Positions 2,984-54,306 of a stretch of DNA of 64,000 bases are shown piece after piece. Source of the DNA: Nitrosopumilus sp. (GTDB lineage Archaea; Thermoproteota; Nitrososphaeria; Nitrososphaerales; Nitrosopumilaceae); the NCBI GenBank assembly GCA_965219345.1, contig OZ244732.1, positions 1,120,001-1,184,000 on the forward strand, in the 5' to 3' direction. The notes beneath the pieces are model-generated. The model made no database searches. It was not told where the DNA came from and saw only the letters and a list, made by a program, of their open reading frames with translations. Position 1 is the stretch's first letter; each line of letters begins with the position of its first letter. The position numbers and the translations under genes were made by a program.

Positions 2984-3037
2984 TCATACTCTGATTTCTC
3001 CAGACATTAGTTTTGAAAGTAAAGAATCACGTAATGT
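2984..3037 (-). pseudogene. hsdS: Third hsdS remnant (C-terminal 17 aa only)
   Basis: Reverse complement translates to TLRDSLLSKLMSGEIRV*. Confidence 0.75.
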
Positions 3038-3039
3038 TT

Positions 3040-3246
3040 AGTTATCTACACGAGTCTTCAGTATCACGCAACTCACTTGTATTAGATATTAGTGAGATAT
3101 TCAAACCAATGATAGTAGACAAAACTATCTTTAGGATACTAAACAACAAGACAATACGTCCCCAACACTTTGATTCTAAACTAAATGGTGTGCTGTTAAA
3201 TGATGTCGGAAAGAAATTATTTGTAAAAGAGTATGTTGGCGCCTGA
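3040..3246 (+). pseudogene. cas1: CRISPR-associated Cas1 (type I-B-like), fragment of the C-terminal domain
   Basis: SYLHE...SLVLDISEIFKPMIVD...LLNDVGKKLFVKEY carries the Cas1 catalytic H and D/E region; adjacent to a CRISPR repeat. Confidence 0.85.
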
Positions 3247-3247
3247 C

Positions 3248-3343
3248 GTTTGAATCGAACTATTACAGGATTGAAATGTGATTGCGACAGTATCGATTGT
3301 AACTTTGATATTACCTTTTGAATCAAACTATTAGGATTAAAAT
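3248..3343 (+). CRISPR. Relic CRISPR array: 30-bp repeat, 38-bp spacer, degenerate terminal repeat
   Basis: gtttgaatcgaactattacaggattgaaat (3248-3277, canonical ATTGAAA(N) end); spacer 3278-3315; ttttgaatcaaactattaggattaaaat (3316-3343). Confidence 0.85.
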
Positions 3344-6690: not shown

Positions 6691-9600
6691 TTAATTGAAT
6701 ATGGTCATAAAAAAATCAGCTATTTTGAGACCCTGTTTTTTTAATAAATCAAACACCATATCAAAAACATTATCTGGATCTGCTACTGGCTCTGGATCCA
6801 TAACAATAATCTCTGGCTCTGGATCCATAACAATAATCTCTGGCTCTGGATCCATAACAATAATCTCTGGCTCTGGATCCATAACAATAGTCTCTGACTC
6901 TGGTTCCATAACAATAATCTCTGGCTCTGGAGGAGGGGAAATAAATTCTATATGGGATTCAAATGTAACTCCCAAGGGCTCAAACAACACCTTATAACCG
7001 CTACAACTAGATCCAAAAGATACTGGTAGTTCAGCATACCTTGAGCTTCTATCATAAATCTTAACTTTGAGATTACCTGCATCTAAAGGAATACCATCAA
7101 AGGAAAAGGCATAAAACGTGATGGGAATCCGTTGTGTCTTGATATAATTTCCAAAGTCTATATCAGAAGATACATCACTTCCAAAATATCCTGAGATGGA
7201 ATTTGTTAATTCCGCAGACAGGTTATCGCCATAAGTTGAAGCGATAAGCAAAAAGTAGTCATTATTACACTGATCCCACAGCAAAATGTTGGGTGACATG
7301 GTGAAACCCACACCACTTCCACTACTACCTTCATTTCTTGAAGGTTCAGGTGTAGGATCTGGTTTAGGTTTAGATACCGGAACATCTACATTGATAGTTG
7401 ACGCTTCTTTTACACTGTAGCTGTCTGACACTGTTGGGGCATCAGCAAGATTCACAGCTGACATTCCAGTAACGGCGTAGCTGTCTGACACTGTTGGGGC
7501 ATCAGCAAGATTCACAGCTGACATTCCAGTAACGGCGTAGCTGTCTGAAATCATTGGGGCATCAGCAAGATTCACAGCTGACATTCCAGTAACGGCGTAG
7601 CTGTCTGAAATCATTGGGGCATCAGCAAGATTCACAGCTGACATTCCAGTAACGGCGTAGCTGTCTGAAATCATTGGGGCATCAGCAAGATTCACAGCTG
7701 ACATTCCAGTAACGGCGTAGCTGTCTGAAATCATTGGGGCATCAGCAAGATTCACAGCTGACATTCCAGTGGTGGTATAGCTGTCTGAAATCATTGGGGC
7801 ATCAGCAAGATTCACAGCTGACATTCCAGTGGTGGTATAGCTGTCTGAAATCATTGGGGCATCAGCAAGATTCACAGCTGACATTCCAGTGGTGGTATAG
7901 CTGTCTGAAATCATTGGGGCATCAGCAAGATTCACAGCTGACATTCCAGTGGTGGTATAGCTGTCTGACACTGTTGGGGCATCAGCAAGATTCACAGCTG
8001 ACATTCCAGTGGTGGTATAGCTGTCTGACACTGTTGGGGCATCAACACCACTCACAGCTAGCATCTCAGTCACATCATAGGAATCTGACACTGTTGGGGC
8101 ATCAGCAAGATTCACAGCTGACATTCTAGTGGTGGTATAGCTGTCTGACACTGTTGGGGCATCAACACCACTCACAGCTAGCATCTCAGTCACATCATAG
8201 GAATCTGACACTGTTGGGGCATCAGCAAGATTCACAGCTGACATTCTAGTGGTGGTATAGCTGTCTGACACTGTTGGGGCATCAACACCACTCACAGCTA
8301 GCATCTCAGTCACATCATAGGAATCTGACACTGTTGGGGCATCAGCAAGATTCACAGCTGACATTCTAGTGGTGGTATAGCTGTCTGACACTGTTGGGGC
8401 ATCAACACCACTCACAGCTAGCATCTCAGTCACATCATAGGAATCTGACACTGTTGGGGCATCAGCAAGATTCACAGCTGACATTCCAGTGGTGGTATAG
8501 CTGTCTGAAATCATTGGGGCATCAGCAAGATTCACAGCTGACATTCCAGTGGTGGTATAGCTGTCTGACACTGTTGGGGCATCAGCAAGATTCACAGCTG
8601 ACATTCTAGTGGTGGTATAGCTGTCTGACACTGTTGGGGCATCAACACCACTCACAGCTAGCATCTCAGTCACATCATAGGAATCTGACACTGTTGGGGC
8701 ATCAGCAAGATTCACAGCTGACATTCTAGTGGTGGTATAGCTGTCTGACACTGTTGGGGCATCAACACCACTCACAGCTAGCATCTCAGTCACATCATAG
8801 GAATCTGACACTGTTGGGGCATCAGCAAGATTCACAGCTGACATTCTAGTGGTGGTATAGCTGTCTGACACTGTTGGGGCATCAACACCACTCACAGCTA
8901 GCATCTCAGTCACATCATAGGAATCTGACACTGTTGGGGCATCAGCAAGATTCACAGCTGACATTCTAGTGGTGGTATAGCTGTCTGACACTGTTGGGGC
9001 ATCAACACCACTCACAGCTAGCATCTCAGTCACATCATAGGAATCTGACACTGTTGGGGCATCAGCAAGATTCACAGCTGACATTCTAGTGGTGGTATAG
9101 CTGTCTGACACTGTTGGGGCATCAACACCACTCACAGCTAGCATCTCAGTCACATCATAGGAATCTGACACTGTTGGGGCATCAGCAAGATTCACAGCTG
9201 ACATTCTAGTGGTGGTATAGCTGTCTGACACTGTTGGGGCATCAACACCACTCACAGCTAGCATCTCAGTCACATCATAGGAATCTGACACTGTTGGGGC
9301 ATCAGCAAGATTCACAGCTGACATTCCAGTGGTGGTATAGCTGTCTGACACTGTTGGGGCATCAACACCACTCACAGCTAGCATCTCAGTCACATCATAG
9401 GAATCTGACACTGTTGGGGCATCAGCAAGATTCACAGCTGACATTCTAGTGGTGGTATAGCTGTCTGACACTGTTGGGGCATCAACACCACTCACAGCTA
9501 GCATCTCAGTCACATCATAGGAATCTGACACTGTTGGGGCATCAACACCACTCACAACCAGCATCTCAGTCACATCATAGGAATCTGACACTGTTGGAAT

Positions 9601-12600
9601 GTCTACACCACTCACAACCAGCATCTCAGTCACATCATAGGAATCTGACACTGTTGGAATGTCTACACCACTCACAGCTAGCATCTCAGTCACATCATAG
9701 GAATCTGACACTGTTGGAATGTCTACACCACTCACAGCTAGCATCTCAGTCACATCATAGGAATCTGACACTGTTGGAATGTCTACACCACTCACAACCA
9801 GCATCTCAGTCACATCATAGGAATCTGACACTGTTGGAATGTCTACACCACTCACAACCAGCATCTCAGTCACATCATAGGAATCTGACACTGTTGGAAT
9901 GTCTACACCACTCACAGCTAACATCTCAGTCACATCATAGGAATCTGACACTGTTGGAATGTCTACACCACTCACAGCTAGCATCTCAGTCACATCATAG
10001 GAATCTGACACTGTTGGAATGTCTACACCACTCACAACCAGCATCTCAGTCACATCATAGGAATCTGACACTGTTGGAATGTCTACACCACTCACAACCA
10101 GCATCTCAGTCACATCATAGGAATCTGACACTGTTGGAATGTCTACACCACTCACAACCAGCATCTCAGTCACATCATAGGAATCTGACACTGTTGGAAT
10201 GTCTACACCACTCACAGCTAGCATCTCAGTCACATCATAGGAATCTGACACTGTTGGAATGTCTACACCACTCACAACCAGCATCTCAGTCACATCATAG
10301 GAATCTGACACTGTTGGAATGTCTACACCACTCACAACCAGCATCTCAGTCACATCATAGGAATCTGACACTGTTGGAATGTCTACACCACTCACAACCA
10401 GCATCTCAGTCACATCATAGGAATCTGACACTGTTGGAATGTCTACACCACTCACAACCAGCATCTCAGTCACATCATAGGAATCTGACACTGTTGGAAT
10501 GTCTACACCACTCACAGCTAGCATCTCAGTCACATCATAGGAATCTGACACTGTTGGAATGTCTACACCACTCACAGCCAGCATCTCAGTCACATCATAG
10601 GAATCTGACACTGTTGGAATGTCTACACCACTCACAGCCAGCATCTCAGTCACATCATAGGAATCTGACACTGTTGGGGCATCAACACCACTCACAACCA
10701 GCATCTCAGTCACATCATAGGAATCTGACACTGTTGGGGCATCAACACCACTCACAGCTAACATTTCAATGAATTTGATTATCTGGATGCCGTCATCAAA
10801 CTTGCTTGCAACTATCGCATATATTGTATTGTTAATAGTAAAGGTCTCAACGTCATTTGCACCGTCAAGTTCTTCATAACCACCAACGCCATCAGTTGCA
10901 TGCGATACAGCAAAAGGAGAAGCAGGATCTGATATGTCAATTATCTGGATGCCGTCATCAAGCAAGCTTGCAACTATAGCATATGTCGCACCATTAATCT
11001 CAAATACGTTAACACCAGCTGCACCGCCAAGTTCTTCATAACCACCAACGCCATCAGTTGCATGCGATACAGCAAAAGGAGAAGCAGGATCTGATATGTC
11101 AATTATCTGGATGCCGCCATCAAACAAGCTTACAACTATAGCATATGTCGCACCATTAATCTCAAACACGTTAACACCATTTGCACCGCCAAGTTCTTCA
11201 TAACCACCAACGCCATCAGTTGCATGCGATACAGCAAAAGGAGAAGCAGGATCTGATATGTCAATTATCTGGATGCCGCCATCAAACAAGCTTACAACTA
11301 TAGCATATGTCGCACCATTAATCTCAAACACGTCAACGTCATTTGCACCGCCAAGTTCTTCATAACCACCAACGCCATCAGTTGCATGCGATACAGCAAA
11401 AGGAGAAGCAGGATCTGATATGTCAATTATCTGGATGCCGTTATCATTAACGCTTACAACTATAGCATATGTCGCACCATTAATCTCAAACACGTTAACA
11501 CCATTTGCACCGCCAAGTTCTTCATAACCACCAACGCCATCAGTTGCATGCGATACAGCAAAAGGAGAAGCAGGATCTGATATGTCAATTATCTGGATGC
11601 CGTTATCATTAAAGCTTGCAACTATAGCATATGTCGCACCATTAATCTCAAACACGTTAACACCAGCTGCACCCTCAAGTTCTTCATAACCACCAACGCC
11701 ATCAGTTGCATGCGATACAGCCAAAGGAGAATCAGGGTCTGATATGTCAATTATCTGGATGCCGTCATCAAACTGGCCAGCAACTATAGCATATGTCATA
11801 CTGCCAATCTCAAACACGTCAACGTCATTTGCACCGCCAAGTTCTTCATAACCACCAACGCCATCAGTTGCATGCGATACAGCCAAAGGAGAAGCAGGAT
11901 CTGATATGTCAATTATCTGGATGCCGTCATCAAATAAGCTTGCAACTATAGCATATGTCGCACCATTAATCTCAAACACGTTAACACCAGCTGCACCCTC
12001 AAGTTCTTCATAACCACCAACGCCATCAGTTGCATGCGATACAGCAAAGGGAGAAGCAGGATCTGATATGTCAATTATCTGGATGCCGTCATCAAGATAG
12101 CCAGCAACTATAGCATATGTCGCACCATTAATCTCAAACACGTCAACGTCATTTGCACCCTCAAGTTCTTCATAACCACCAACGCCATCAGTTGCATGCG
12201 ATACAGCCAAAGGAGAATCAGGGTCTGATATGTCAATTATCTGGATGCCGTCATCAAGATAGCCAGCAACTATAGCATATGTCATACTGCCAATCTCAAA
12301 CACGTCAACACCAGCTGCACCCTCAAGTTCTTCATAACCACCAACGCCATCAGTTGCATGCGATACAGCAAAGGGAGAAGCAGGATCTGATATGTCAATT
12401 ATCTGGATGCTGTCATCACTAAAACTTGTAACTATAGCATATGTCATACTGCCAATCTCAAACACGTCAACGTCATTTGCACCATTAAGTTCTCCATAAC
12501 CACCAACGCCATCAGTTGCATGCGATACAGCAAAGGGAGAAGCAGGATCTGATATGTCAATTATCTGGATGCCGTCATCAAACTGACCAGCAACTATAGC

Positions 12601-13608
12601 ATATGTCATACTGCCAATCTCAAACACGTCAACGTCATTTGCACCCTCAAGTTCTTCATAACCACCAACGCCATCAGTTGCATGCGATACAGCAAAGGGA
12701 GAAGCAGGATCTGATATGTCAATTATCTGGATGCCGTCATCTGTACGACTTGCAACTATAGCATATGTCGCACCATTAATCTCAAACACGTCAACGTCAT
12801 TTGCACCCTCAAGTTCTTCATAACCACCAACGCCATCAGTTGCATGCGATACAGCCAAAGGAGAAGCAGGGTCTGATATGTCAATTATCTGGATGCCGTT
12901 ATCAAACCAGCTTGCAACTATAGCATATGTCATATTGTTAATAGTAAAGAACTCAGCATCAATTTCACTTGTAAATTTTTGATAAGTGTCATAAATATCA
13001 GTTACACTGGCCACAGGTGAGATAGAAATATTACTCTTAGTTACAACCATACCATATACTTCTTTACTGACAAATGAAAATAAGATTAAAATTACAAGTG
13101 TTAAAATTAATAAATAATTGTTTAGAGAATTATGTATTGTAATATATTCATAGGAATGAATCTGCCGTCTCAGTTTTTGATTGTAGCATATATTTATAAA
13201 AACATTGTATTTTTTTATACCCACACAATGATTGGTCAATAAAGTTGATATGTAGCTATGATGGTGTCTTGATCTTGTAATCTTTTGCATAACACTGTAT
13301 AGTTTAATCTGAAAACCCAAGACTGAAAATGCACAGCTAACTATGAGAATGAAATGCAAGACAAGCAAGAAAAATAAAACCATATAATTATCCAAAGCTT
13401 GCCATTCAAAAAACAACATGTAACTGTCTGCAAATTCTAGTTTTCTAAGTATGGCATCATGGTGATGCTCTTCAGTAGAATCATAACTTGCATCATATAA
13501 AATGTAGTGCTTTGCACCATCATTATCATAAGAGTCAGAGTATCCTATTCCGCCTAATAAAAACACAGATAACAATATGTTAAAAGAAACAAGAATATGT
13601 TTGTTCAA
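6691..13608 (-). CDS. Giant repetitive cell-surface protein/adhesin: 14 LVIVD-type beta-propeller blades, 20-aa repeat stalk, Pro/Glu linker, amphipathic C-terminus
   Basis: 2305-aa ORF; YAIVA...GIQIIDISDP repeats; hydrophobic N-terminal segments (true start uncertain). Confidence 0.85.
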   Translation of the reverse strand: MNKHILVSFNILLSVFLLGGIGYSDSYDNDGAKHYILYDASYDSTEEHHHDAILRKLEFADSYMLFFEWQALDNYMVLFFLLVLHFILIVSCAFSVLGFQIKLYSVMQKITRSRHHHSYISTLLTNHCVGIKKYNVFINICYNQKLRRQIHSYEYITIHNSLNNYLLILTLVILILFSFVSKEVYGMVVTKSNISISPVASVTDIYDTYQKFTSEIDAEFFTINNMTYAIVASWFDNGIQIIDISDPASPLAVSHATDGVGGYEELEGANDVDVFEINGATYAIVASRTDDGIQIIDISDPASPFAVSHATDGVGGYEELEGANDVDVFEIGSMTYAIVAGQFDDGIQIIDISDPASPFAVSHATDGVGGYGELNGANDVDVFEIGSMTYAIVTSFSDDSIQIIDISDPASPFAVSHATDGVGGYEELEGAAGVDVFEIGSMTYAIVAGYLDDGIQIIDISDPDSPLAVSHATDGVGGYEELEGANDVDVFEINGATYAIVAGYLDDGIQIIDISDPASPFAVSHATDGVGGYEELEGAAGVNVFEINGATYAIVASLFDDGIQIIDISDPASPLAVSHATDGVGGYEELGGANDVDVFEIGSMTYAIVAGQFDDGIQIIDISDPDSPLAVSHATDGVGGYEELEGAAGVNVFEINGATYAIVASFNDNGIQIIDISDPASPFAVSHATDGVGGYEELGGANGVNVFEINGATYAIVVSVNDNGIQIIDISDPASPFAVSHATDGVGGYEELGGANDVDVFEINGATYAIVVSLFDGGIQIIDISDPASPFAVSHATDGVGGYEELGGANGVNVFEINGATYAIVVSLFDGGIQIIDISDPASPFAVSHATDGVGGYEELGGAAGVNVFEINGATYAIVASLLDDGIQIIDISDPASPFAVSHATDGVGGYEELDGANDVETFTINNTIYAIVASKFDDGIQIIKFIEMLAVSGVDAPTVSDSYDVTEMLVVSGVDAPTVSDSYDVTEMLAVSGVDIPTVSDSYDVTEMLAVSGVDIPTVSDSYDVTEMLAVSGVDIPTVSDSYDVTEMLVVSGVDIPTVSDSYDVTEMLVVSGVDIPTVSDSYDVTEMLVVSGVDIPTVSDSYDVTEMLVVSGVDIPTVSDSYDVTEMLAVSGVDIPTVSDSYDVTEMLVVSGVDIPTVSDSYDVTEMLVVSGVDIPTVSDSYDVTEMLVVSGVDIPTVSDSYDVTEMLAVSGVDIPTVSDSYDVTEMLAVSGVDIPTVSDSYDVTEMLVVSGVDIPTVSDSYDVTEMLVVSGVDIPTVSDSYDVTEMLAVSGVDIPTVSDSYDVTEMLAVSGVDIPTVSDSYDVTEMLVVSGVDIPTVSDSYDVTEMLVVSGVDAPTVSDSYDVTEMLAVSGVDAPTVSDSYTTTRMSAVNLADAPTVSDSYDVTEMLAVSGVDAPTVSDSYTTTGMSAVNLADAPTVSDSYDVTEMLAVSGVDAPTVSDSYTTTRMSAVNLADAPTVSDSYDVTEMLAVSGVDAPTVSDSYTTTRMSAVNLADAPTVSDSYDVTEMLAVSGVDAPTVSDSYTTTRMSAVNLADAPTVSDSYDVTEMLAVSGVDAPTVSDSYTTTRMSAVNLADAPTVSDSYDVTEMLAVSGVDAPTVSDSYTTTRMSAVNLADAPTVSDSYDVTEMLAVSGVDAPTVSDSYTTTRMSAVNLADAPTVSDSYTTTGMSAVNLADAPMISDSYTTTGMSAVNLADAPTVSDSYDVTEMLAVSGVDAPTVSDSYTTTRMSAVNLADAPTVSDSYDVTEMLAVSGVDAPTVSDSYTTTRMSAVNLADAPTVSDSYDVTEMLAVSGVDAPTVSDSYTTTRMSAVNLADAPTVSDSYDVTEMLAVSGVDAPTVSDSYTTTGMSAVNLADAPTVSDSYTTTGMSAVNLADAPMISDSYTTTGMSAVNLADAPMISDSYTTTGMSAVNLADAPMISDSYTTTGMSAVNLADAPMISDSYAVTGMSAVNLADAPMISDSYAVTGMSAVNLADAPMISDSYAVTGMSAVNLADAPMISDSYAVTGMSAVNLADAPTVSDSYAVTGMSAVNLADAPTVSDSYSVKEASTINVDVPVSKPKPDPTPEPSRNEGSSGSGVGFTMSPNILLWDQCNNDYFLLIASTYGDNLSAELTNSISGYFGSDVSSDIDFGNYIKTQRIPITFYAFSFDGIPLDAGNLKVKIYDRSSRYAELPVSFGSSCSGYKVLFEPLGVTFESHIEFISPPPEPEIIVMEPESETIVMDPEPEIIVMDPEPEIIVMDPEPEIIVMDPEPVADPDNVFDMVFDLLKKQGLKIADFFMTIFN
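6788..6930 (-). repeat. 27-bp tandem repeat, about 5 copies (PEPEIIVMD)
   Basis: ggctctggatccataacaataatctct repeated. Confidence 0.9.
7417..10768 (-). repeat. 60-bp coding tandem repeat, about 56 copies (EML(A/V)VSGVD(A/I)PTVSDSYDVT and (G/R)MSAVNLADAP(T/M)(V/I)SDSY variants)
   Basis: Visible as near-identical consecutive 60-nt lines from 7441 to 10741. Confidence 0.97.
10775..12950 (-). repeat. 162-bp (54-aa) coding tandem repeat, 14 LVIVD-like blades
   Basis: cttgcaacta recurs at 162-bp spacing (12911, 12749 ... about 10805); 14 (G/S)IQII motifs. Confidence 0.95.
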
Positions 13609-14835: not shown

Positions 14836-15102
14836 GTGAGAAAATCATTAATTCTAACTATATTATTTGTGGCTTCTTTAACCTCTCTTATAGCGGTATT
14901 GTATTCAACAACCACCTTTTTTGCTCCAACGATAAATGATACACCGGCTGTATATGATGATATGAAACTTGAGATATCTAATTCTGATATAGTTGATGTT
15001 TATGATAGTATAAACAGCAATAAAACTAGTGATTCATTTACTGATGAGGCAAAACATTACACCATAAACGCAGTAGATACACCTGTTATGAAAGAACCCT
15101 AA
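14836..15102 (+). CDS. Small membrane-anchored protein ending in a single stalk-repeat-like motif
   Basis: GTG start, TM helix, C-terminal YTINAVDTPVMKEP. Confidence 0.6.
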   Translation: MRKSLILTILFVASLTSLIAVLYSTTTFFAPTINDTPAVYDDMKLEISNSDIVDVYDSINSNKTSDSFTDEAKHYTINAVDTPVMKEP

Positions 15103-15182
15103 GGCAATTTGTTTTTGTTAGTATCTTTGAGTTTCTCATCCGCGTTGTAGATACACCTGTTATGAAAGAACCCTAAGGCAAT
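15073..15182 (+). repeat. CRISPR-like unit: perfect 36-bp direct repeat flanking a 38-bp unique insert
   Basis: gtagatacacctgttatgaaagaaccctaaggcaat at 15073-15108 and 15147-15182. Confidence 0.9.
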
Positions 15183-15241: not shown

Positions 15242-16028
15242 TATATGAAAATCACTTCCGCTAGTCATCGGCGTCCTCCTCCATCCATTTTGGGTTCTTT
15301 TTCCTGATCGCATCTGTGGCCCTTTTGTCGTCTGCCGTTGCGTCCCACAAAGCACGAACCATTGTCAGACAGTATGGTTGCAGGTGTGCCGAATTTCCCT
15401 ACTGCCTTTCTTAGTACCAGTACGGCATTCTCAGAGGTGGCCTGCATGAAGAGCCGTGCTGCCATGATGATGCACCGTGAGGAGTCATCCAGATACGTGA
15501 CCAGATGGAGCCCGCCAAGGCGCGGATCTCTCATGATGTGCCAGTCCACGTGCCACATGGCATTTGAGTATCTTCTCTCAAAGCGTACCCATTTGCGCTT
15601 CCTTGACTTGGCCACAGAGTGTATGGCCGGTCCATTCTCCTTCATGATTCTGTATGTGCTTCTGTAGCTTATGTTATGGTCTTCCTGCAGGTGCATGGCA
15701 ATGCGTACCACTCCAACCGGTTCTTTGCGGTGCATGTCCAATACTGCCCGTCTCTCCTGGCGTGGGCAGAAGAATCTGCCTTCTTCTTGGGTTGCGTTGT
15801 ATGTGATGCGTGTCCGTACTGCAAAACTCGGCCCACAGCTACTGGATGCGCCTTTGTTACCTTGAGCTCCGATGCAATCTCTGCCGTGGATCTCTTCTTC
15901 TTGCACTGGGCAGCGGCGTATCTGATCTGCCCCCTGTTAGTCTGACTCTCATCTGCCTTGCTGATCGGTACAGCCCAACGTAGTCCTTTGCAAGTCTCCT
16001 AAAAGTGAGGCGAAATGATTTCGGTACA
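15242..16028 (-). mobile_element. Degenerate IS481-family element (frameshifted rve/DDE transposase, ATG at about 15952)
   Basis: RKKWVRFER.YSNAMWHVDW-type motif, YLDDSSR, ILSDNGSCF; visibly GC-richer than flanks; imperfect ends tgtaccgaaatcatttcg / tatatgaaaatcacttcc. Confidence 0.8.
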
Positions 16029-52210: not shown

Positions 52211-52699
52211 TTGCAGGCAGTAACTGATGATCGATTAGCACTTTTTGGTGAAATGGAGTCAAAATATGAACAAAAAGATACAGAGTATTTTGTTTCTCTT
52301 TTAGAACATCCTGATTATGTGGTTAGAACAAGAGCTACCTGTATTTTGGTTGATTTTGGTGGAGAGGATAAAGTTCCCCATATTGCTAAAGTTTTAAAAA
52401 ATGATGAAAATGAATTGGTACGACATGAGGCTGCGTTCTCATTAGGCCAGATGTGTTACTCTAGTTCAATTCCTCCTCTAAATGATGCAACACTTAATGA
52501 TCCAAGTATGTTTGTACGTCATGAAGCTGCAATTGCTTTAGGTATTGTTGGCTCTAAAGATGCAAAAGAAACTTTGGAAAAGGCATTAAACGATCCTGAT
52601 AAATCAGTCGTTGAATCCGCAATTGTTGCCTTGTCTAATATTCAATTTATGGAAACGTTAAGTAAGAATGAAAAGTTTGCGAAGTTGACAGGTGGATGA
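52211..52699 (+). CDS. HEAT-repeat protein (PBS-lyase/DOHH-like)
   Basis: VRHEAA twice. Confidence 0.85.
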   Translation: MQAVTDDRLALFGEMESKYEQKDTEYFVSLLEHPDYVVRTRATCILVDFGGEDKVPHIAKVLKNDENELVRHEAAFSLGQMCYSSSIPPLNDATLNDPSMFVRHEAAIALGIVGSKDAKETLEKALNDPDKSVVESAIVALSNIQFMETLSKNEKFAKLTGG

Positions 52700-52700
52700 G

Positions 52701-53687
52701 ATGAATTTTGCATATTATGTTATAGCTATAGTTGGCGTTCTTGCTGCAATAATTTTAGGATTGATTGCTGCAGCACCTGATGATATTATAGAACCAAGAG
52801 TAGCTTCTGTTGAAGATATTTCTGTCAATTCTTACATTCTGCCAAAAACTGCAACTGTGGGTGATATTTTACTTATTGAAATTGAGTTTAGAGATGATGG
52901 AAAGAAAATTGTTGATCATGTAAATTATGATATAATTGCTACACAAGATGGAGATACAATTCTTTCAGAACCTGGTTCTCATAGACACCCTGGAATGCAT
53001 CCAATTCATGAAACTAGTGTATTAAGCGAGTCTCCACTTGAAATTCAAGTTACTTTACAAGGTTTAGGTCATGGTGATGATATCTCAGAACCAAAGGGAG
53101 ATGTAACTACTTTGACTGTTGATCCTGAAGTTGGACCAATTGCATGTACTTTGGAACATGCACCAGTTTGTGGTGTTGATGGTGAAACATATGGTAATTT
53201 GTGTATGTTAGATGCTAGTCATATTAAATTAGATTATGAAGGTGAATGTGTGATTGCACAACCAGAACCAGTTGAAGAGAAACCAACTACTTTAGCAGAT
53301 AATGCAGAAGTAACAATTGGAACAGTAGAACAATCTGCGTTTGGTCAGGACTGTGTGGCAGATGGTTGTTACACGCCAAATTCTGCAACTATTGATGTTG
53401 GTGGTGTTGTAACAATGACAAACACAGATACTACTGGAGTACATACATTCACATCCGGAACAGTTGATGGATTTACTCCTTCTCCAAATGGTACATTTGA
53501 TTCAGATATCCTATTATCGGGAGATTCATTTGAATGGATTCCAGATACTGCAGGTGAAGTTCCTTACTATTGTGTGCTTCATACTTGGATGCAAGGCACA
53601 ATCATAGTACAAGAAGCAGAAGAAGAAATCATGGAAGAAGTTGAAGCAACACCAGAACCAGTTGCAGAAACATCGAACCATCAATAG
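52701..53687 (+). CDS. Membrane-anchored Kazal-domain plus plastocyanin-like blue-copper protein, probably 3'-truncated
   Basis: CTLEHAPVCGVDGETYGNLC (Kazal); HTFTSG...YYCVLHTWM (type-1 Cu site). Confidence 0.85.
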   Translation: MNFAYYVIAIVGVLAAIILGLIAAAPDDIIEPRVASVEDISVNSYILPKTATVGDILLIEIEFRDDGKKIVDHVNYDIIATQDGDTILSEPGSHRHPGMHPIHETSVLSESPLEIQVTLQGLGHGDDISEPKGDVTTLTVDPEVGPIACTLEHAPVCGVDGETYGNLCMLDASHIKLDYEGECVIAQPEPVEEKPTTLADNAEVTIGTVEQSAFGQDCVADGCYTPNSATIDVGGVVTMTNTDTTGVHTFTSGTVDGFTPSPNGTFDSDILLSGDSFEWIPDTAGEVPYYCVLHTWMQGTIIVQEAEEEIMEEVEATPEPVAETSNHQ

Positions 53688-53772
53688 CACTAACAATATT
53701 GCATGCTTTTGACAATTTCCATCAATGTTAATGATGTTGCAGAAACATCGAATCATCAGTAGCACTAACAAT
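53661..53772 (+). repeat. CRISPR-like unit: 37-bp direct repeat (2 mismatches) flanking a 38-bp insert
   Basis: gttgcagaaacatcgaa(c/t)catca(a/g)tagcactaacaat at 53661-53697 and 53736-53772. Confidence 0.9.
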
Positions 53773-53811
53773 CTCAATTCCTAAGGCACTATCAAAGGTG
53801 TAAGAACCATT

Positions 53812-54306
53812 ATGAGTGAAGGAGGAGATAACGCGTATTATGTTAATGTCTCATCAGAATCTAAAATTCAAGCTATTGCATGTACGATGGCTTGTATGAT
53901 GTTTAATGAGAAAAAAAATAATTTAATTCCTTATTATGTTCAACCAAAAGAATATTTTGATTATAATGGGAAGCAAATGTCAACAGGATTAGAAAAAATA
54001 ATCTACGTGCCACAGTATGAAATTAAAACACCTGATGAAAAACTAATGCAATCTTTGCAAATCATAAAAGAAAATGATAATCGAATTACAAAAAGTGATT
54101 TAGCAAAAGCTGTAGATGAAAAAAATATTATTGAAATTGGTGCTAAACAAGAGAATTATGAACAAGCAAGATTCACGAGTTTAGATAAAAATATAATTCA
54201 ACCTTTAAAAGATAATTGGAAATTTATCCAAGAAAACAAAATTGGAAGAACAAGATGGGTTGAGATCACTCCTGAAGGAGGAAATGTATTAGAAATTTTA
54301 GACTAG
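53812..54306 (+). pseudogene. N-terminally truncated DUF6293-like (CARF/Csa3-like plus wHTH) regulator
   Basis: YVNVSSESKIQAIACTMACM; C-terminal wHTH ending GRTRWVEITPEG. Confidence 0.6.

Follow-up and report, generated by a model that had tools for sequence, protein, structure and literature searches.

A probable ectopic CRISPR spacer integration in a Nitrosopumilus genome, most likely by its resident type I-G module

How does chromosomal DNA outside any CRISPR array come to hold two copies of a repeat-length sequence around a spacer-sized insert? The question is raised by a locus in a 64,000-nucleotide (nt) stretch of DNA from Nitrosopumilus sp., here called the window (C1:1120001-1184000 of a 1.91-Mb, two-contig genome, G000). 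The genome encodes archaeal AmoA and archaeal ribosomal proteins, and is therefore that of an ammonia-oxidising archaeon. An initial annotation, made from the letters of the window, had described a 37-bp duplication with two mismatches around a 38-bp insert and had proposed off-target ("ectopic") spacer integration as its cause. Our answer is that the unit is very probably the footprint of one such integration, performed by the resident type I-G Cas4/Cas1 fusion together with Cas2. Its parts, in window positions, are as follows:

53661-53697 (+): repeat copy 1, the duplicated target, 37 nt as aligned and possibly 36
53698-53735 (+): spacer-like insert, 38 nt, or 39 if 53736 is counted
53736-53772 (+): repeat copy 2, the duplicated target, 37 nt as aligned

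The two copies are identical at 35/37 positions and start 75 nt apart, with mismatches at 53678 (C versus T) and 53684 (A versus G). A search of the window with the 37-mer, allowing up to three mismatches, returned these two sites and none further, and two such matches appeared in 0 of 100 dinucleotide shuffles; across the genome the repeat likewise exists only as this pair. The unit is confirmed by alignment, window search, and shuffles alike. No inverted repeats were found in it. BLAST homology of the insert to its donor gene (see below) covers 39 nt (53698-53736), so the true split may be a 36-nt duplication and a 39-nt insert.

These dimensions are those of a CRISPR system elsewhere in the genome. 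A whole-genome scan for repeat-insert-repeat layouts identified a single large array, 468 kb away at C1:1641728-1653821, with 164 copies of a 36-nt repeat, a period of 71-76 nt (median 74), and 163 spacers, 150 of which are 35-40 nt long. The duplication (37 or 36 nt) matches the repeat length of this cognate array, and the insert (38 or 39 nt) is of spacer length. One flank of the array carries an intact Cas4g/Cas1g fusion (561 amino acids (aa), no stops; NF049935, E 6e-227) and Cas2, and the other carries Csb2, Cas7g, Cas8g1/Csx17, and Cas3g; by gene content, the 164-repeat system is assigned to type I-G, and it is intact. The initial annotation had noted that the duplication did not fit a 30-bp array in the window, and had therefore called for another Cas1 and a system with 36- to 37-bp repeats. 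The genome supplies both, in the form of a type I-G system with its own Cas4g/Cas1g beside 36-nt repeats. The 30-bp array also exists, as a decayed type I-B remnant:

3013-3343 (+): decayed second CRISPR locus, a 77-aa C-terminal fragment of Cas1b (type I-B) and then a mini-array

The mini-array begins 2 nt past the Cas1b fragment (3013-3246) and consists of a 30-nt repeat (3248-3277), a 38-nt spacer, and a degenerate repeat (3316-3343). The same 30-nt repeat forms a live array in a relative, G164. The I-G gene and the 77-aa I-B fragment are the only Cas1 homologues in the genome, and no casposase gene was found there.

The initial annotation suggested a search for a protospacer, and a source was found in hppA, the gene for H+-pyrophosphatase. 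The insert matches hppA at 33-34/38 positions in G007, G017, G011, and G003 (33-35/38 over five relatives) and at 31/38 in the genome's own copy (C1:1195011-1195048). The allele of the insert in public run X5 matches hppA of G161 at 37/38 positions and the own copy at 33/38; of the five mismatches to the own copy, four are at third codon positions, and the frame of hppA is preserved. Read in that frame, the insert encodes SLTLMGIIKSMQ and the own copy SLTLMGIIKGMQ. The two additional changes of the window allele are at first and second positions of codons, the pattern that drift following the insertion would produce. Under self-derivation, five differences from the own hppA would have a Poisson P of about 0.004-0.02 (under a rough rate assumption). 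Because these five differences compare with only 1-2 between the repeat copies, a self-derived insert is unlikely, and the donor was more probably the chromosome of a related archaeon, a congener. The 5' flank of the protospacer is TTG in the own genome and in G007, and TTN is the protospacer-adjacent motif (PAM) given in the available text on a studied type I-U/I-G Cas4/1-Cas2 system (PMC6547450).

The unit is one of many. We applied a loose filter outside the array (repeat at least 24 nt, insert 30-45 nt, period 60-85) and manually excluded six pairs judged to be tandem repeats within coding sequence (605115, 1030798, 1030900, 1779671, 1780112, and 1868726). Thirty-eight isolated repeat-insert-repeat units pass this filter, and we place the overall number at about 30-38 genome-wide. 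The main class comprises 27 units with a period of 71-76 (median 73, against 74 for the array), and the apparent repeat is 36-37 nt in 20 of them; nine units form a second class with a period of 64-68, and two are odd. A strict filter (repeat of 28 nt or more, found exactly twice within 2 kb, at periods of 30-300) placed 33 of 50 pairs at period 64-75, including 22 at 72-75, with 0-3 pairs in each other 4-nt bin. Repeats and inserts all differ between units, with cross-matches only between copies of duplicated regions, which argues against a mobile-element family. The copies show no mismatch in 23 of the 38 units, one in nine, two in five, and three in one. A third repeat or second insert was found in 0/38. 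Where the initial annotation counted two independent events in 64 kb, both prove real and the count was too low. The other of its two events is this sister unit:

15073-15182 (+): 36-nt repeat, 38-nt insert, 36-nt repeat, 0 mismatches

Copy 1 of this unit contains the stop codon of a 123-aa open reading frame (ORF), and its insert matches G159 (87% over 38 nt). As a separate observation, a transposase-like ORF (15265-15906, -) adjoins the unit, and the DNA downstream of the unit is multi-copy in G007 and G017. Units elsewhere also terminate ORFs. At C1:88227, a 4925-aa ORF contains an in-frame unit of 75 nt (36+39), which adds 25 codons; the insert of this unit reproduces C1:523291-523329 exactly. 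The DNA around three sister units (L033-L035) is genome-specific, and only their inserts match relatives.

The period 64-68 units are found in C1 at 431953, 1251065, 1265409, 1448839, 1483340, 1573079, 1573477, 1824847, and 1826944. Their repeats are mostly 30-32 nt and their inserts 32-41 nt, and by eye they lack the border motif described below. This class may be a trace of a now-dead type I-B adaptation module with 30-nt repeats.

Donors and empty paralogous sites show that sister units arose by insertion plus duplication. Donors for 6/38 inserts lie elsewhere in C1, five exact over the aligned part and one at 34/35. For the 163 array spacers, no self match was found in the own genome, only 16-21-nt matches at chance level. 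The contrast between inserts with self donors (6/36, duplicate units dropped) and array spacers (0/163) gives a Fisher P of 2.4e-5. For unit 1335276, three paralogous copies (gap-free, 98.45% identity over 258 nt) hold a single repeat apiece and lack an insert. Units 404166 and 1448839 sit in two copies of one element, at almost identical targets; their duplications are 36 nt and 31 nt, respectively, and their inserts differ. A third copy of the element, at C1:332925-333200, is empty. These two insertions were independent of each other.

The targets share a rule at their borders. Among 50 half-sites of 25 main-class units (243305 being left out as a duplicate of 37490), 29 have G at +4 (binomial P = 3e-10) and 24 have T at +2, while positions +6/+7 are rich in A. 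Borders of the 53661 unit (GTTG/ATTG) and of the 15073 unit (GTAG/ATTG) both fit N-T-N-G, a rule that accounts for the "GT start" and "CAAT end" that the initial annotation saw in the two units. The motif was not clear in 8-9 units of G156 and G161, inspected by eye only. We also considered "repeat mimicry" as the targeting rule and rejected it, as the resemblance of targets to the array repeat is only marginal.

What was the target before the insertion? The features around the unit bear on this question:

52692-53687 (+): 331-aa ORF with an N-terminal membrane anchor, a Kazal domain, and a cupredoxin-type domain with a YYCVLHTWM copper motif
53773-53786 (+): last remnant of a second cupredoxin domain (..SIPK) and deletion junction, with homology to the next gene of G007 beginning at about 53786
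53812-54306 (+): 5'-truncated gene for an HFX_2341/Csa3-like regulator, 164 aa versus 254 aa in G007

The TAG stop codon of the 331-aa ORF (53685-53687) falls within repeat copy 1. Pfam finds Kazal_1 in this ORF (E 8.7e-8) and no copper-bind match at E<=0.01; we label its C-terminal domain cupredoxin because of its copper motif and its DNA similarity to relatives, at 77-95% identity to their plastocyanin-like genes. In the old frame, which is shifted from that of the 331-aa ORF, copy 1 reads E-P-S-I-A-L-T-I and copy 2 E-S-S-V-A-L-T-I, and the repeat with the 13 nt after copy 2 reads ESSVALTISIPK. After an acidic linker, relatives continue with EPESSMALTIS (G159) or STMALTVSIPNG (G007), the start of a further cupredoxin domain; the G007 homologue is a 189-aa protein with Pfam Copper-bind. 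By this alignment, the repeat was once coding sequence and opened a second cupredoxin domain that is now lost, as the initial annotation had supposed from its plastocyanin-like reading. Relative to G159, one base is lost in a TC(A/G)-GAA stretch. Both repeat copies share this frameshift, which is therefore older than the duplication and, as the alignment suggests, would predate the insertion.

Beyond ..SIPK, the sequence enters the next gene at codon ~88 (relative to G007), and the truncated regulator keeps only positions 83-120 of the N-terminal-domain profile, plus a winged-helix domain. A deletion of roughly 0.8 kb thus took away what followed in domain 2, the stretch between the genes, and the regulator gene's 5' third. 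The region had been described as decayed coding DNA; this holds for the former second domain and for the 5' third of the next gene, both of which are lost, but not for the 331-aa ORF, which is not decayed.

The unit is old. It is present whole and without gaps in a contig of run X4 (8571 nt) and in short contigs of runs X5 and X6 (second study), which have a T at 53678 that makes copy 1 equal to copy 2 there. As all contigs of two studies hold the unit, with drift, we regard it as old and fixed: it is older than the strains in these runs and among the oldest of the genome's units. The two mismatches, against none at 15073, and the strain polymorphism inside the unit agree with the order of ages proposed in the initial annotation. 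G007, the closest relative and 92% identical on the downstream side, offers no simple empty site, as the gene upstream is not the same one there and the gene downstream is intact. No orthologue carrying the insert as normal coding sequence turned up; the repeat or insert is coding in 0/150 other genomes of the genus.

Relatives differ in whether they possess the module. Cas4g/Cas1g scores above the family cut-off in 11 of 151 genus genomes and is absent from G007. The same script, run over the first 400 kb of five genomes, gave the following counts:

G000, I-G positive: 7 units
G156, I-G positive: 4 units
G161, I-G positive: 4-5 units
G007, I-G negative: 0 units (one 60+15 coding repeat)
G012, I-G negative: 0 units

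We propose the following course of events for the 53661 unit. The Cas4/Cas1-Cas2 complex would have been loaded with a prespacer of ~38-39 nt, excised from hppA in a related archaeon. Its two staggered strand transfers, at a spacing of 36-37 nt, would have fallen in ordinary chromosomal DNA rather than at the leader-repeat junction of the array, and gap repair would have duplicated the 36-37 nt between them. They would have struck the start, already frameshifted, of the lost second cupredoxin domain, a stretch that takes in part of the surviving ORF's end with its stop codon. As this DNA was no longer coding and the stop-codon region was duplicated, the 331-aa protein would have stayed unchanged, and the insertion could have drifted to fixation. 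This reading is favored by the period that the array and the main-class units share, the intact cognate genes, the excess of such units over pairs with other periods, the diversity of repeats and inserts, the donors, the empty sites, the border motif, the link with I-G across genomes, the lack of any other full Cas1, and the likeness to the studied I-U/I-G system. The anatomy, the donor, the cognate system, the recurrence, the empty sites of three sister units, and the link with I-G-bearing genomes are shown; the identity of the enzyme, the order of events, and neutrality are what we infer here.

The result would be a scar rather than a working array. The array repeat forms a 7-bp hairpin (-8.3 kcal/mol, z -3.4). 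The copies at 53661 fold at -0.6 and -3.4 kcal/mol (z 0.64 and -0.75), which amounts to no stable hairpin, and they lack the ATTGAAGC 3' end of the array repeat. Rfam gave no known RNA family; its only two matches, at 19.5 and 16 bits, fell short of their gathering scores (55 and 86). With no hairpin, no 3' handle, and no second insert in any of the 38 units, we read the units as inert scars. The initial annotation had considered promiscuous integration both as a recurrent process and as a way of seeding arrays. Recurrence is supported by the number of units, the donors, the empty sites, and the cognate system; seeding finds no support, as every site stops at one insert.

Several points weigh against integration by the I-G module. 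At the locus itself, the repeat as aligned is 37 nt and not 36, although the 39-nt donor match permits a 36+39 split; the deletion junction lies as close as 11-14 nt to copy 2; and an empty allele of the site was not seen, all four public runs carrying the full unit. The 37-nt repeat is held by 0/150 other genus genomes, and a metagenome scan with the 37-mer, degenerate at its two variable positions, gave 0 matches. PAM use is inconsistent: the protospacer has a 5' flank of TAG or TGG in three other relatives, and TTN occurs on either side in only 3/7 units with known donors. Targets barely resemble the array repeat (mean 12.0 versus 10.8 of 36 positions, P = 0.009). The longer the apparent repeat of a unit, the shorter its apparent insert tends to be (r = -0.75, n = 27), as would fit a process of fixed total length. 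We attribute this to boundary ambiguity; unit 429362, for example, is scored 33+40 and becomes 36+37 once its donor is aligned. Finally, the comparison of three I-G-positive with two I-G-negative related genomes, at 400 kb each, is not a statistical test.

Among the alternatives, we first weighed the same chemistry performed by a different Cas1, belonging to an adaptation module that was foreign or has since been lost and whose ruler measured 36-37 nt. The unit predates the divergence of the strains, so the extant I-G module need not be its maker; the I-B fragment attests to the loss of at least one further CRISPR-Cas locus; and the second size class (period 64-68) implies that more than one ruler acted. 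However, the I-B remnant is a misfit with its 30-nt repeats, the 36-nt ruler and border motif are shared with the 23 zero-mismatch units, which are necessarily recent, and relatives with intact I-G hold units of the same size. We consider this alternative unlikely.

A non-CRISPR mobile element or unknown transposase, with a cargo of ~38 nt and a target duplication of 36-37 nt, would explain why the total added length is steadier than either part. We judge it very unlikely, since the inserts have neither sequence, nor ends, nor inverted repeats in common, and every one is a copy of unrelated genomic or kin DNA. Moreover, the period of the units equals that of the array, and no units occur in the two I-G-negative relatives sampled. 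Casposases, the transposases closest in kind and lacking in this genome, duplicate 13-14 bp according to the available text of one study (PMC8464041).

Local tandem duplication or replication slippage, with the insert as native sequence, could draw on the repetitive linker, where Tandem Repeats Finder reports a 21-nt period (53639-53680). Yet the insert is not repeated, and it is homologous to the unlinked hppA in that gene's frame. The sequence past copy 2 does not continue the insert, and sister units have exact donors and empty sites, so that we give this explanation only a slight probability. That the unit is a remnant or transferred piece of a bona fide CRISPR array, as its repeat-spacer-repeat layout, its CRISPR-like sizes, and the decayed but real mini-array at 3248-3343 might suggest, is scarcely credible: the repeat is homologous to coding sequence of relatives, lacks the array repeat's hairpin as well as its 3' end, and resembles none of the genome's array repeats (13/36 scored positions, chance level), a match by which the initial annotation would have recognised such a remnant.

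Off-target Cas1-Cas2 integration was reportedly found to create "neo-CRISPR" loci by Nivala, Shipman and Church in 2018 (Nat Microbiol). In the portions of the sources available to us, to which the comparisons in this and the next paragraph are limited, the neo-CRISPR work used the Escherichia coli type I-E system with over-expressed Cas1-Cas2 and supplied oligonucleotides, and its natural cases were circumstantial and came from two other species (10.1101/148544). Such integration is also cited in PMC7054753 and PMC6698737, and off-target acquisition is listed as one origin of isolated arrays. The units in G000 resemble neo-CRISPR loci in having a spacer-sized insert and a repeat-length duplication of non-repeat DNA outside an array, with cognate Cas1-Cas2 present. 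They differ in that an archaeal type I-G fusion is involved and that the events are natural, number in the dozens, and come with donors, empty sites, and a border motif. Unlike in the birth of a neo-CRISPR array, sites in G000 never proceed beyond one insert.

Other integrases offer partial parallels. Cas1-Cas2 of Pyrococcus furiosus (PMC6698737) also performs full-site integration at paired sites one repeat-length apart, with a base preference at both borders and a loose resemblance to the repeat; there, the ruler is 30 bp, the borders are G/C, and the targets are plasmids in vitro, whereas in G000 the spacing is 36-37 nt, the border is N-T-N-G, and the insertions are fixed in the chromosome. 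The I-U/I-G system of Geobacter sulfurreducens (PMC6547450) shares a Cas4/Cas1 fusion, a predominant 36-bp spacer, a repeat ending in AGC, and a TTN PAM, although PAM use in G000 is weak (3/7); off-target integration is not mentioned in the available text of that study. The family 1 casposase of Ca. Nitrosopumilus koreensis (PMC8464041) is likewise a Cas1-family integrase of ammonia-oxidising archaea with a molecular ruler and target duplication. In contrast to our units, casposons have a 13-bp duplication, terminal inverted repeats, and a specific target, and G000 is without a casposase. Our literature search found no genome-wide account of off-target integration for archaea, type I-G, or ammonia oxidisers, and no natural genome with dozens of such events turned up; neither is proof of absence.

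Taken together, the finding is most likely natural, old, and presumably neutral ectopic spacer integration, with the resident type I-G module as maker. Off-target integration is known mainly from over-expressing E. coli and from in vitro work. In this genome, by contrast, nature has supplied some thirty events from an uncharacterised archaeal I-G module, complete with donors, empty sites, and a border preference, such that the target rule of a Cas4/Cas1 integrase can be read from genome sequence alone. The set also provides direct evidence from nature that self-derived spacers are acquired and survive only where they are unable to guide interference, and it hints at uptake and sampling of congeners' chromosomal DNA by these archaea. 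In annotation work, units of this kind account for puzzling 72-76-nt duplications at gene ends and within genes.

A broader view, which to us seems about as apt to fail as to hold, is that in ammonia-oxidising archaea with type I-G systems, Cas4/Cas1-Cas2 would be a standing insertional mutagen, scattering dozens of spacers, some of them truncating genes, by a loose palindromic N-T-N-G rule acting 36 nt apart. Ectopic units, not being processed into CRISPR RNA, would escape autoimmune selection and so keep an unfiltered record of capture (own DNA in 6/38, and congener genes) that would have been erased from the array (0/163); the period 64-68 class would then be the fossil of a dead type I-B module.

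We also searched the genus with the whole array. No protospacers, and hence no PAM for the array, were found, with the best two candidates per genome scored; what came up, besides arrays, was one solitary repeat, in G017, and one spacer derived from a repeat, in G164. The spacer belongs to the 30-nt-repeat array of G164 (C1 about 2066163-2066197, L134), where it copies positions 8-36 of the I-G repeat and adds 6 nt matching the start of a spacer in the array of G000. One CRISPR system, that of G164, has here sampled the CRISPR array of a congener. The solitary I-G repeat in G017 (G017:C1:1535361-1535404, L133) matches at 43/44 positions, flanking bases included; G017 is without I-G cas1, and the repeat is probably the last trace of a lost array. 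In the window, 6691-13608 (-) is a 2305-aa ORF made up largely of 60/120-nt and 162-nt tandem repeats, and giant repeat genes of this kind elsewhere in the genome yield many repeat pairs with periods of 135-175.

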